Both the position numbers and the translations under genes were made by a program. From IMG/VR virus record IMGVR_UViG_3300021958_000023, positions 109,520-173,519 of that record: a stretch of DNA of 64,000 bases, one strand, 5' to 3'. Every line of letters starts with the position of its first letter. The stretch's first letter is position 1. Positions 21,192 to 36,061 of this stretch are shown here, in pieces. The notes beneath the pieces are model-generated. The model ran no database searches and had not been told where the DNA came from. It worked only from the letters and a program-made list of their open reading frames with translations. The DNA is from a virus. Taxonomy: Duplodnaviria > Caudoviricetes.

Positions 21192-21560
21192 CTATCTAAA
21201 TTTGGAACCAGCTTTTGCTTTTCGTTCTTCTTGTTTACGCTTTTCTTCATAAAATTTGCTATATTCTTGAATACAAATTTGAAGCATTTCAAAAGTATCT
21301 TTCCAGTTTACCATTTGAAATATTGTCATAATATCTGATAAACCCGCATACTCTTTACCTAACCAAACTCCATTCATACCTTCAACTTTATCAGGTAATA
21401 CATTCATTAATACTAAAGCTTGTTGAGCCTCTAAAGATAAATCTGAAGTATCAAGAGGTTGGTCATCAAAATCTTGCCAACCCATTTGATCTGCCATTAA
21501 CCAATATTGTTCTTTTGTAATACCTCCACCTACAAAATTAGACTGGAGGTATTTTATTAG
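21192..21560 (-). CDS. Tail assembly chaperone, -1 frameshift extension (gpT-like)
   Basis: Open -1 frame from the slippery site through MADQMGW... to the stop at 21192. Confidence 0.75.
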   Translation of the reverse strand, partial: LIKYLQSNFVGGGITKEQYWLMADQMGWQDFDDQPLDTSDLSLEAQQALVLMNVLPDKVEGMNGVWLGKEYAGLSDIMTIFQMVNWKDTFEMLQICIQEYSKFYEEKRKQEERKAKAGSKFR

Positions 21561-21566
21561 TTTTTT
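21519..21566 (-). other. Programmed -1 ribosomal frameshift signal
   Basis: Slippery A AAA AAC (21566-21560), 6-nt spacer, 10-bp stem AATACCTCCA/TGGAGGTATT. Confidence 0.8.
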
Positions 21567-21988
21567 TCCGCTTCAGCTTTTTTTGTTACTGAAAACTGTT
21601 CAAAATCATTCATACAATCAGTAATAAACTGATCAAATACAGAAGAGTTTTTAATTAGTTCAAGAGCTTCTTCTTCTGAATAGGCTACGTTTTCTTCTAG
21701 ATTAACCCCTGTTAAATCAACAGGCAAGAGTTGTGGAAGATTTTTTAATTTTAAACCTTTCCATCCTCTAATTGCTTTTTTAGTATAAGCTTCTAAAAAC
21801 TTATCTTGATCAATCTCTTCTTCTCGCTGACGAGTACGTTTATTAAATTTATAAGTTAAACTTTGGTTTCTAATCTTAACTAGATCTTCTCTGCTAAGAT
21901 ACGCAATTTTTAAAATAAAACCATCAATGTCTGGATATTCTACTTCAGTGATAGTTTCTGTTGCAATTAAATTTGAAATTTTACTCAT
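21557..21988 (-). CDS. Tail assembly chaperone (gpG-like)
   Basis: Lies between tail tube and tape measure genes; AIRGWKGL motif; ends at the slippery site. Confidence 0.85.
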   Translation of the reverse strand: MSKISNLIATETITEVEYPDIDGFILKIAYLSREDLVKIRNQSLTYKFNKRTRQREEEIDQDKFLEAYTKKAIRGWKGLKLKNLPQLLPVDLTGVNLEENVAYSEEEALELIKNSSVFDQFITDCMNDFEQFSVTKKAEAEKN

Positions 21989-22014
21989 GTTTTCCCCCTA
22001 CTAGGTGTTAATAT

Positions 22015-22089
22015 AAAAAAAGGGTGTCCATCATTATTAGCTAAAACAGAGCTGAGGGGGAAGCTCGTTGTTGCTCATGATGAACACCC
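22015..22089 (-). terminator. Intrinsic terminator with large structured loop after the tail tube gene
   Basis: 13-bp stem GGGUGUUCAUCAU/AUGAUGGACACCC (one G-U) followed by U7. Confidence 0.7.
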
Positions 22090-22125
22090 ACATGAAATTA
22101 TTTACCCCCTCAAGTAATAATTTTA

Positions 22126-23430
22126 TTAGTTATTATCACTTTTTACGAAGAACTCAATCTCGTCTCCAGAACCACGCTGACCTTCTTGTGCAAGGAAGTC
22201 AACAGACATTCCAAGAACATCATCAATTTGATGAACTGGAAAGTTAAACTGCACTGCTGGCATTGCAATATGGAAATATGGAGCAGTTCCACCACCAATT
22301 TGAATGTTAGCAGAGCTAGTAATTGCGTGAGACACACGAGAGTCATTCACAACTTTGTTCAAGAACTGTGCAGAGTTTGCTCTTGTGGAGTTTTCTGAAG
22401 CAGATCTTAGATATGCAGTAAATGATCCTGTGATTGTTCTAGATCCTGTAAACTGCCCAATTGGAGTGTTCAGAGCAGCTAGTTCTTCTGGTGTTAGATA
22501 TGTAACATCGTTAGAGTAGCTAAAGCTTAGACCAGTTACAGGGAATGAGTATACGTTAGCGCCTTCTGCAGCAGATCCTTGATGTGAAATCTCAATAGCA
22601 CTTAGACGGTTTTTAATAAAGTCAACAGTATAAGTTGAACCTTCTACGTTCATTGTTGCATAAGGATGGTGTGAAGCTGCGGCTGTAGTAGTAATAGATG
22701 CATTAGGAGTAATAGTAGAACCATCGTTGTTAACTCCTCCAAATACAGCAATAGCCTTATTTCTTGCATCGCCTGTTAATTCAACCATTTCTGTACCAAA
22801 ACCACTCCAAGTAGTAGTTGCAATTCCATCAACAGAAGCATCGATTTCACCACTGTTTACAATCGCTTTCTTAACTTGGTATACAAGGTTATCAAGCTTA
22901 AAGTACATATGATTTTCTTGAGCAATAGCAAAGTTAGAACGAGTTGAATGTGTGTTTGCTGATGCTGCAGTATTTGCTGATTTAATTTTAGCAGAAGAGG
23001 TGTTAGTATCATAGAACCACACAGACTGTTCACCACCGTTTGAAGATGCAGGAGCTGTATTACTAATTAATGATTGCCATAAATACCAATCAGCTACAGG
23101 TTTTGAATTTCCTGTTTCTGCTAATCCTGTACCTTGAGAAGGATCATTTACTTCTGCTCCAGTAGGTCTTAAATATGTTTGAAAATTCCACTCCACAGGA
23201 TTACGTGCAGTGTTAAATCTTTGTACACTTCTGTCTGGGTCTAATCCACTCTCTAATGAGGTGATATCTTGAACCGCAGAATCAGCAGAAAGAGCGTACC
23301 CCGCTAAAACCTCAATTCTCCAGGTATTAGCAGGAGTAAGATCAGCAGCTGCTGTTGAAGTCAGCGACAAGTCTTTTATTGAGTAAAAGACTGTAGTATT
23401 TCTTTGTAAGTTTAGCTGAGTACCCGCCAT
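22126..23430 (-). CDS. Major tail (tube) protein, T5 pb6-like
   Basis: WRIEVLAGY, FNTARNPVEWNFQTYLRP, SNDVTYLTPEEL, FTGSRTITGSFTAYL motifs. Confidence 0.85.
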   Translation of the reverse strand: MAGTQLNLQRNTTVFYSIKDLSLTSTAAADLTPANTWRIEVLAGYALSADSAVQDITSLESGLDPDRSVQRFNTARNPVEWNFQTYLRPTGAEVNDPSQGTGLAETGNSKPVADWYLWQSLISNTAPASSNGGEQSVWFYDTNTSSAKIKSANTAASANTHSTRSNFAIAQENHMYFKLDNLVYQVKKAIVNSGEIDASVDGIATTTWSGFGTEMVELTGDARNKAIAVFGGVNNDGSTITPNASITTTAAASHHPYATMNVEGSTYTVDFIKNRLSAIEISHQGSAAEGANVYSFPVTGLSFSYSNDVTYLTPEELAALNTPIGQFTGSRTITGSFTAYLRSASENSTRANSAQFLNKVVNDSRVSHAITSSANIQIGGGTAPYFHIAMPAVQFNFPVHQIDDVLGMSVDFLAQEGQRGSGDEIEFFVKSDNN

Positions 23431-26789: not shown

Positions 26790-26803
26790 TTTTTCCTCCT
26801 AGT

Positions 26804-26836
26804 AAAAAGGGGTAGGCGTTGTTTTACACCTACCCC
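26804..26836 (-). terminator. Intrinsic terminator after the capsid gene
   Basis: GGGGTAGG-loop-CCTACCCC followed by TTTTT. Confidence 0.8.
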
Positions 26837-26877
26837 GTTGTATTAACGCCTAGTTAATGATTTAATAGTCGAAACTA

Positions 26878-28293
26878 TTAGGAACCAGAACGTACAACCG
26901 CTGCATAAGGATACTTAGAAGCATCTAGAGCCGCACTTGAGTTCGTGGTTAGCGCTTTAAAGTCAAAGCGTGTGCTCATGTACATCGCAGTGACCTGCTG
27001 GCGTGGTTCGTACTCGCTCTCGATTTCCATGCCGCGTCTTTCAGCAATCATGAATCCAGGCTTGTAGACAAGTGCGCCGATATCATAATCAGCACCGCCA
27101 ACGTTATCTAGGAATTCAGTAATTACAACTGGAATTCCGTAGATGGCGCCAAGTGAACCTGTTAAGTAGGTCGCATTTGGTCCGAACTTATCAACTGTAC
27201 GGAAGTCAGACTCAGCTACTAGTGAGTTATAACCTTCAACAGTTGTTAAGTATACTAGCTGATCACCAAGCTGTAGACCGTACTTACCAAGTAGGGCACG
27301 AGCAGAGGCAATGTTAGCTGGAGAGGCTTTAGTAGAGTTACCACCAGTTTGAACGTTAAGTGCAGAAGCGCCAACAGCGTTAGCTAGCTCAACAACACCT
27401 GTGATAACAGAAGCGAATCCAGCACCACCAGAAATAGCAGCAACAGAGTTAGCTGTAAATCCAGTTAGAGCGCCAGTACCACGTAGGATCGACTTATCGA
27501 TAGAACGTGCTAGACGACGAGTTGCACCAGCGCGGAGGAAGTCGATAACAGGAAGAATTGTATCTTCTTCTTCATCTTTAGCAATATGAGTTGTAGCCAT
27601 AAACTTGTGTGGTGTAAACTCAACAGCTTTGATCTGGTTATTACGTCCAGAAGTTGGTACGTTAGTTGTGTCTCCAATACCAGACGCATATGTACCGTTA
27701 GCAAACTGTGCAACGTCGTCAGTGGTATCTTCATCAGCAACTGGTACTCTGAAGGTTTTTGCATCAACAGCAATACGCTCAAACATTGGAGCAATTACTA
27801 ACTGCTGCTGCATCTCTTCATAAATATTTGAAGAGAAGTTAGAAAGGAACTGGTCAACAGTTGTGACATCAGCTTTCATACGAGCACCAAACTTGGTGTC
27901 CATTGGATTAGACTTACCAAGAGCGTGTGCAAGCATAACAGCTTTTGCCTGATCAGCTGAACTCCAACGATCAGAGTTACGCTGAGACTCCTGCCATACC
28001 ATCTTGCTGTTCTGAAGAGCAGCAATTTCTTCTCTATATTTTTCCATCTGAGCTTTTAACTCAGCAACAGCTTCGGTCTCACGAGGAGTGTAAGCGGTTG
28101 AGTGTGTTTCATGCACGATAGTTTGTTTATCTTGTGCATCTGTTTCAGCTAAAATAGCCTGACCAGTTTTTTCGATTAACTCAGCCACTCTAGGCTCAGA
28201 GACTTCTACTGGGGCGGCTTTAGCTTCTGCTTGTTTATTTTCGGTTGCGCCTGTGTCAATAGTTAGCACATCACCTGCAGTTTGAGTAGCCAT
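26878..28293 (-). CDS. Major capsid protein from an internal in-frame start (471 aa)
   Basis: AAAGGAGAATAACGAC-ATG GCT ACT: AGGAG 9 nt upstream of an in-frame ATG; size similar to T5 pb8. Confidence 0.7.
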   Translation of the reverse strand: MATQTAGDVLTIDTGATENKQAEAKAAPVEVSEPRVAELIEKTGQAILAETDAQDKQTIVHETHSTAYTPRETEAVAELKAQMEKYREEIAALQNSKMVWQESQRNSDRWSSADQAKAVMLAHALGKSNPMDTKFGARMKADVTTVDQFLSNFSSNIYEEMQQQLVIAPMFERIAVDAKTFRVPVADEDTTDDVAQFANGTYASGIGDTTNVPTSGRNNQIKAVEFTPHKFMATTHIAKDEEEDTILPVIDFLRAGATRRLARSIDKSILRGTGALTGFTANSVAAISGGAGFASVITGVVELANAVGASALNVQTGGNSTKASPANIASARALLGKYGLQLGDQLVYLTTVEGYNSLVAESDFRTVDKFGPNATYLTGSLGAIYGIPVVITEFLDNVGGADYDIGALVYKPGFMIAERRGMEIESEYEPRQQVTAMYMSTRFDFKALTTNSSAALDASKYPYAAVVRSGS

Positions 28294-34048: not shown

Positions 34049-34060
34049 GTTCCCCTCATT

Positions 34061-36048: not shown

Positions 36049-36061
36049 GACTAATCATACT

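Follow-up and report, generated by a model that had tools for sequence, protein, structure and literature searches.

A conserved RNA element at the tube–chaperone junction of uncultured marine T5-like phages and its possible role as a ribosome-sensitive switch

The tube–chaperone junction and its predicted structures

The window analyzed in this study is a 64,000-nt stretch of a virus record with a GC content of 36%. The coding strand is the minus strand, on which a 137-nt spacer separates the gene for the major tail (tube) protein from that for the tail assembly chaperone. The tube gene (22126..23430, minus strand) encodes a 434-aa, T5 pb6-like protein matching PHROG 3575, major tail protein (E 9.5e-45); its own Shine–Dalgarno (SD) sequence is the canonical AGGAG, and it ends in tandem in-frame stop codons, UAA UAA (22123..22128, minus strand; TAA at 22128-22126, second TAA at 22125-22123). 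The protein is about 29% identical to the tube proteins of the Demerecviridae (T5-like phages), with none closer among deposited phages. The chaperone gene (21557..21988, minus strand; ATG at 21988-21986) encodes 143 aa, matches PHROG 313 (E 6.8e-12), and is followed on the same strand by a second chaperone ORF and by a 1591-aa tape measure. These profile-based gene calls match the flanking genes (tail tube, chaperone, and tape measure) named in the original prediction, and its coordinates for all elements were reproduced to the base on the minus strand.

The two chaperone ORFs are joined by a canonical -1 programmed frameshift signal (window 21521-21572, minus strand). The slippery heptamer A_AAA_AAC (21566-21560) lies just 5' of the chaperone stop codon (21559-21557), with the -1 frame open from position 21572 on, and an 8-bp hairpin, UACCUCCA...UGGAGGUA (21551-21521), is placed 8 nt downstream, which is the expected G/GT-type arrangement.

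The spacer contains two hairpins ahead of the chaperone SD. The stop-proximal hairpin a (22096..22122, minus strand), supported by the fold and by family-wide covariation, begins about 2-3 nt from the tube stop codon in the window and carries the SD-like sequence UGAGGGGG (22112-22105), which lies 14 nt past the stop by sequence, in agreement with the distance of about 14 nt given previously. The hairpin had been described as displaying the entire 8-mer; the hairpin is real, but its minimum-energy form exposes only a GAGG tetraloop (22111-22108) closed by U.G, U.G, and C-G pairs from the G-run, with the other Gs weakly paired. A short linker (22090..22095, minus strand) leads to hairpin b; in the family, 15-29 nt separate the end of the G-run from the basal stem.

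Hairpin b (22022..22089, minus strand; 68 nt), delimited by RNAalifold and pair counts, consists of a 13-bp basal stem (22089-22077 with 22034-22022; 12 Watson-Crick pairs and one U.G pair), a 3-bp middle helix seen in the fold (22075-22073 with 22041-22039) that is bounded by asymmetric internal loops, and an inner hairpin, GAGC-UUCCCCCUCA-GCUC (22049..22066, minus strand), whose apical loop, referred to here as loop b, occupies 22062-22053. A U7 tract (22015..22021, minus strand) directly follows the basal stem. As G.U pairs occur in both hairpins, the structure is read on the sense RNA and not as DNA. The chaperone SD, AGGGGGAA (element c; 21992..21999, minus strand), stands 3 nt before the ATG and is an 8-nt complement of loop b. 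Inspection by eye for a sigma-70 promoter inside or after hairpin b, for a hammerhead-like CUGA core, and for a K-turn at the asymmetric internal loop found none that fits its consensus.

Distribution and covariation of the element

In IMG/VR, protein-guided searches located 191 loci; both genes were present in 173 of these, which provided 74 distinct junction sequences, with tube-protein identities among the surveyed relatives ranging from 98% down to 49%. The architecture was kept in 74/74 distinct junctions (173 IMG/VR loci), and the spacer measured 123-159 nt across the family. Walking outward from the most divergent member led to a further clade with the same loop cores, and no clade with altered loop cores was found by this walk. 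There were 349 tube-gene relatives in IMG/VR, and the element is abundant in marine, estuarine, and salt-marsh viromes.

A covariance model from the family scored the representatives at 82-141 bits and found exactly one copy in the 64-kb window, where the match to model R1 extends over 21980..22136 (minus strand; 122.8 bits, E 9e-25). The 151-nt region folded better than all of 200 dinucleotide shuffles (z = -3.17). The original prediction knew of no described element of this kind, and this view held up: cmscan of 21500-22600 against Rfam 15 with E up to 10 returned four chance-level matches, none on the element, and literature searches found no description of a comparable element at a tube–chaperone junction. 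When deposited phages were searched with the junction at the DNA level, no match was obtained either. In Vibrio phage VCPH, the tube gene adjoins the next gene without a spacer, and no model match rose above noise.

Concerning the origin of the phage, the sole copies of the tube gene among species-representative genomes (L277 and L278) are on 5-kb contigs in metagenome-assembled genomes (MAGs) of the SAR86 cluster and of Melainabacteria. Host assignment through this binning was rejected, as the contigs are probably mis-binned phage DNA; the low GC content of SAR86 would suit the 36% of the phage and is no evidence of a host.

Hairpin b was strongly supported by the family comparison. In a structure-blind MAFFT alignment (A1), 94.9% of its cells were paired, compared with 34-47% in slid controls; double compensatory changes were found at 16/20 pairs, including 11/13 of the basal stem, and 0/500 shuffles reached the observed covariation. 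Its span was constant at 66-74 nt in all variants, with a total helical length of about 20-24 bp interrupted by two internal loops and with conserved purines (GAUA/AAUA/GAAA) on the 3' side of the internal loop.

Realignment with model R1 failed to register hairpin a across clades, and windows anchored on the GAGG tetraloop were used instead. In the resulting gap-free alignment (A5), centered on this tetraloop, hairpin a was paired at 79.4% compared with 42-58% in slid controls, its covariation score was 0.555 compared with 0.15-0.20, and 0/500 shuffles scored as high, with 51 distinct sequences in the arms. The hairpin starts between -3 and +8 nt from the stop codon in 56/61 variants, with the stop sometimes within the stem. 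Since it starts this close to the stop codon, the terminating ribosome must open hairpin a, and the earlier suggestion that such a ribosome could disrupt this hairpin therefore extends from the window to the family; structures that act in translational coupling likewise lie within the reach of the terminating ribosome.

These comparisons indicate, at the level of sequence and predicted fold, an element at the tube–chaperone junction far beyond chance. Covariation of the three segments across related phages, which the original prediction had put forward as its check, was found for both hairpins and for the flanks of the pairing between them, but pairing of loop b with the SD was without co-evolution (p about 0.24).

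Pairing of loop b and the question of termination

The G-run of hairpin a and loop b are perfectly complementary over 8 nt in the window (UGAGGGGG/CCCCCUCA), as had been noticed from this sequence, and the complementarity proved universal: it extends over 6-13 bp in 74/74 variants, with 13 bp in L180. The cores GAGGGG in a and CCCCUC in b occur in essentially all variants, the exceptions being one GGGGGGG, which pairs through G.U, and one CCCCUCC, and these six bases are fixed while the stems drift freely. Written as CCCC(C)UC, the loop b core occurs in 74/74 variants. Outside the cores, the flanks show compensatory differences between clades (GGGGGAAC/GUUCCCCC, GGGGAAAU/GUUUCCCC, GGGGAAAC/GUUUCCCC, and GGGGGCAA/UUGCCCCC), and the G-run and the C-run vary together in length (5G/5C in 14 types and 4G/4C in 9, with 4/5 mismatches in 5). 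The a:b duplex energy averaged -18.60 kcal/mol with own partners compared with -17.12 kcal/mol with swapped partners, and 0/20,000 permutations were as good; with one representative per flank signature, 50/20,000 were as good.

In several clades, the a:b complementarity also takes in bases from the 3' arm of hairpin a and the base that closes the inner stem, so that the top of hairpin a and a complete a:b helix are in competition. When nascent transcripts ending before the 3' strand of hairpin b were folded, a:b was part of the minimum-energy fold in 52-61/68 variants, the exceptions being clades with a very stable hairpin a. With a:b predicted in the nascent fold, the full element would be a pseudoknot or kissing complex once hairpin b closes. 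By sequence comparison, loop nucleotides of the element are thus predicted to pair with a segment outside their own hairpin, with the support of covariation, in the manner of the pseudoknot/kissing-loop class.

The near-invariant GAGGGG and CCCCUC in otherwise drifting hairpins could also be explained by recognition of the RNA, as an RNase III-type processing signal or as an operator bound by a phage protein (tube or chaperone) in autoregulation, with the fixed GAGG tetraloop and the C-rich loop as contact points. The conserved internal-loop purines and the long helix of hairpin b with its two internal loops would fit this explanation, and the intergenic RNase III sites of phage T7 are long irregular hairpins with internal loops. 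Nevertheless, the co-evolution of the a:b flanks favors RNA–RNA pairing over two independent protein contacts, no candidate binding protein was identified, and neither Rfam nor any other model matched; we regard this explanation as improbable.

Loop b also matches the chaperone SD perfectly over 8 nt in the window (AGGGGGAA/UUCCCCCU) and over 5-10 bp in most clades. The proposed match stands in the window, but beyond the shared GAGGGG core it shows no co-evolution, with -13.25 kcal/mol for own and -13.15 kcal/mol for swapped partners and 4,793/20,000 permutations as good. Furthermore, it is weak in three clades: the L133 group (SD UGAGAGG, -7 to -8.5 kcal/mol), L107/L040 (SD AUGAGGAAA, -8.4 kcal/mol), and L038 (SD AAAGGAAAA, -3.0 kcal/mol). 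Because a:b is kept in all of these, a:b must have a role that is independent of c. Six loop b nucleotides are common to the two pairings, which are therefore mutually exclusive, as originally proposed.

Several data suggest that pairing of loop b with c is plausible as judged from the sequences. The usual SD of the phage is AGGAG/GGAGG, and the GAGGGG-type chaperone SD is atypical yet kept in most clades. Loop b binds c at -13.3 kcal/mol compared with -7.8 kcal/mol for an E. coli-type 16S tail. The c:b match is weak in the clades where hairpin a is very stable (-12.5 to -18.4 kcal/mol; Spearman rho -0.49 over 68 variants, a value that is driven by two clades and ignores kinship). Both the tighter binding and this correlation fit a three-way competition. 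As loop b is at the tip of a hairpin of about 21 bp and the SD begins 7-22 nt past the base of that hairpin in the family, contact between them would hinge on bending of the hairpin at its internal loops.

Elsewhere in the window, GAGGGG and CCCCUC were found only as ordinary SDs or inside coding regions. UGAGGGG-type SDs are a minority class in this phage, which mostly uses AGGAG; they precede two putative oxygenase-unit genes on the minus strand (AAUGAGGGGAAC AUG at 34057-34051 and AUUGAGGGGAGAUUAUA AUG at 36001-35995), with a clear TTGACT-N17-TATAAT-like promoter near 36050 ahead of the latter. No partner loop was found near either of these two SDs.

The persistence of a:b where c:b is lost, together with the lack of co-evolution in c:b, is what the main rival would lead one to expect. 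This rival regards the element as a static structured terminator or insulator: hairpin b, with or without its U-tract, would end or stabilize the tube mRNA, a:b would compact or harden the spacer, for example against nucleases, Rho loading, or downstream re-initiation by tube ribosomes, and the SD/anti-SD resemblance would be incidental, G/C runs being the cheapest stable pairing at 36% GC. It gains from the fact that terminators on the capsid side likewise have G-run/C-run arms (for example, GGGGGAGG/CCUCCCCC). The fixation of the six-base cores in drifting stems points in the other direction, as it suggests a constraint beyond mutual pairing, and so does the weak c:b match in the clades with a strong hairpin a.

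The terminator features bear on the same question. In the window and its close relatives, a GC-rich stem of 13-14 bp precedes U6-7, and for the clade of the window transcription termination is a reasonable inference from these sequence features; it is clade-specific and no family property. The longest U-run after hairpin b in 73 variants was 7 in 13, 6 in 7, 5 in 14, 4 in 25, 3 in 11, and 2 in 3, that is, at least 5 in 34/73 and U2-4 in 39/73, the latter having stems of the GAGUGCC...GGCACUC type with the SD only 7-10 nt past the stem. The roughly half of the family with U5-7 suits a static terminator, but with only U2-4 and an SD 7-10 nt away in the other half, termination cannot be the shared function. 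The predicted terminator therefore stands for the window's clade, with its 13-bp stem and U7, but not family-wide.

Compact terminators have loops of about 3-8 nt, whereas the stem of hairpin b encloses a 42-nt structured insert, and a scan with a terminator consensus called no terminator at hairpin b. At the capsid-gene junction, the same lineage has compact canonical terminators with 11-17-bp stems, 4-6-nt loops, and a U-tract; the long hairpin with a displayed loop is thus a special design and not the default of the lineage, and a plain terminator would need no such insert. Taken together, the static explanation is rather unlikely in our judgment, even as the foremost competitor of the switch. 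The expectation that clades with a good U-tract had lost c:b was rejected, as U-run length and c:b strength were uncorrelated (rho 0.07).

In metatranscriptome assemblies of four salt-marsh runs, the tube gene and portions of the genes downstream are covered by contigs, none of which bridges the element. RNA contigs end at 22109/22110 (inside the G-run, in two studies), 22129, and 22007 (8 nt past U7), and one starts at 21992, in the SD; assembled contigs cannot define RNA ends, and strain variation in the spacer could break assemblies.

The capsid side offers further observations. The capsid-side junction of the window (26791-26880, minus strand) has a layout parallel to that of the tube–chaperone element. 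The stop codon of the 912-aa protease-capsid ORF lies within the hairpin UAAUAGU-UUCG-ACUAUUA; UAGGCGUU, which lies upstream, has its complement, AACGCCUA, within the 3' arm of the terminator GGGGUAGGUGU...ACGCCUACCCC-U5, and an SD (GGAGG) follows directly. In L255 (71% identity), the corresponding pair is CAGGCGUU/AACGCCUG, a compensatory change, while most other relatives have different small hairpins at this junction. Over the first approximately 120 nt past the capsid ORF stop in L191-L270, the stop usually forms part of a small hairpin or is placed at its loop. The capsid-side terminator arms are G-runs and C-runs, for example, GGGGGAGGCGG/CCGCCUCCCC, and the 3' arm contains a 16S-like CCUCC.

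A GC hairpin with a U7 end also resembles the 3' end of a small RNA, and further UGAGGGG-type SDs exist in the window, which together allow a trans-acting reading: the terminated tube transcript would act as a 3'-UTR regulator whose C-rich seed in loop b represses GAGGGG-type SDs, with a masking the seed. Such a regulator would act on the chaperone gene of read-through transcripts and on the two genes of the oxygenase unit whose SDs are at 34057 and 36001. Precedents exist in the C-rich anti-SD sequence of the icaR 3' UTR (PMC3868564) and in the terminator-loop kissing of OxyS with fhlA (reviewed in PMC11979758). Such a role is inapplicable to the half of the family without a U-tract, and a:b in cis is predicted to occupy the seed; we judge it very improbable.

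The least likely explanation, to which we give only a very slight chance, is a leader-peptide attenuator, in which the G-run serves as the SD of a short ORF and translation through hairpin b controls termination. The window does contain an 18-codon ORF, MWVFIMSNNELPPQLCFS (22093-22037, minus strand; ATG at 22093), which starts 11 nt past the G-run and spans loop b, and terminator-type clades have AUG or GUG at the 5' edge of the basal stem, opening a 14-18-codon frame that ends just past loop b. The GAGUGCC-type clades, however, have no start codon, the ATG is AGG in L071, both frame and peptide vary between clades, and the SD-to-AUG spacing of 11-27 nt is mostly too long. The small ORF behind the G-run was accordingly rejected as a functional leader, as it is not conserved across clades.

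A candidate ribosome-sensitive switch and its relation to known systems

In tailed phages, adjacent genes must supply roughly one hundred tube subunits or more per few molecules of chaperone and tape measure. To our knowledge, beyond the well-known chaperone frameshift, the means by which phages set the tube:chaperone:tape-measure ratio are seldom understood. The element is located exactly at the step-down from tube to chaperone and tape measure, is conserved and supported by covariation, and is absent from Rfam. It probably sets the amount of chaperone and tape-measure protein. The reading that we prefer is a ribosome-sensitive, cis-acting pseudoknot switch that would lower expression between the abundant tube protein and the scarce chaperone and tape measure, and we give it a probability of roughly 0.45.

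The proposed switch would work through four successive, mutually exclusive segments in an attenuator-like chain, namely the 5' arm and the G-run of hairpin a, loop b, and the SD c. The G-run could pair with the weak U/C-rich top of its own 5' arm, with loop b, which is predicted to be its strongest partner (mean -19 kcal/mol), or in principle with the 16S tail, while loop b could pair with either a or c (mean -13 kcal/mol). When a stop codon occupies the A site, the ribosome keeps about the next ten nucleotides single-stranded; with such a footprint, the 5' arm of hairpin a would be held and the G-run, just outside, would be free to pair. A ribosome at the tube stop would thus cover the 5' arm and release the G-run, which could then capture loop b and leave the SD open. 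Without a terminating ribosome, hairpin a would compete for the G-run part of the time, and loop b could mask the SD. We infer the formation of b:c, the shift of balance by the ribosome, and the sign of its effect from the arrangement of these segments.

An influence on termination may be added to this scheme. In the clade of the window, the basal stem with U7 would also end most transcripts, and a:b, predicted to form while the 3' strand of hairpin b is still to be transcribed, may delay the closing of the basal stem and in this way tune read-through. The fullest form of the proposal, that one pseudoknotted RNA of about 135 nt works in hundreds of marine T5-like phages as a ribosome-operated "SD-decoy" switch, setting both read-through and the initiation of chaperone and tape-measure translation and so encoding the ratio of tail proteins, we consider doubtful.

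Among known systems, attenuators of the trp and ermC types have four successive segments with alternative pairings (1:2, 2:3, and 3:4), and the position of a ribosome sets their state. The element shares the chain of mutually exclusive pairings and, as proposed here, the dependence on ribosome position. It differs in that there is no conserved leader peptide, the sensing ribosome being one that terminates on a full-length structural gene, and in that pairing 2:3 crosses the stem of hairpin b, which makes it a pseudoknot or kissing complex and not a nested alternative.

Translational coupling by RNA unfolding is known from E. coli rpmI-rplT, MS2 coat-lysis, and f1 VII-IX, and the +52-nt spacer of rpmI-rplT provides a precedent for ribosome-driven unfolding over such distances (PMC12548453). 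As in those systems, the ribosome of an upstream gene would melt a structure, refolding would alter access to the downstream ribosome-binding site over tens of nucleotides, and the setting is a phage operon with unequal protein needs. Unlike them, the spacer here is 123-159 nt, with coupling proposed from sequence; the ribosome would act on a decoy hairpin and not on the helix that holds the SD, and the relay would run through the tip loop of a second hairpin, which is terminator-like in part of the family.

The 3' UTR of the icaR mRNA of Staphylococcus aureus carries the anti-SD motif UCCCCUG (PMC3868564), and loop b is similarly a C-rich, anti-SD-like motif in a structured region past a coding sequence, complementary to a G-rich SD at which its pairing would block initiation. 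The icaR motif targets the 5' UTR of the same gene without a decoy, and its pairing triggers RNase III cleavage (PMC3868564), whereas the candidate target here is the SD of the next gene, and the conserved decoy a would compete with that SD for the motif. The loop-loop pairing of exposed terminator-hairpin loop nucleotides with a translation-initiation region is reminiscent of OxyS and fhlA (PMC11979758); OxyS acts in trans, while all partners here are in cis on one mRNA, with the loop on a 42-nt insert in a terminator-like stem.

The guanidine-II (mini-ykkC) riboswitch also combines tandem hairpins and kissing loops with access to a downstream SD as the output (PMC5558903). Its loops are identical ACGR tetraloops and depend on a ligand (PMC5558903), whereas the loops here, GAGG/UGAGGGG and UUCCCCCUCA, are complementary 6-10-mers, imply no ligand, and show no sequence or model similarity to it. 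The element belongs to none of the compared families. It is an undescribed RNA family of about 135 nt from an uncultured marine T5-like lineage, with a known regulatory logic and familiar parts in a new arrangement.

Should the switch model fail, the element would still be a well-defined new structured RNA family with long-range loop-loop pairing. If the model holds, a cis-acting relay of decoy and anti-SD, read by the terminating ribosome, would join the known modes by which polycistronic expression is tuned.
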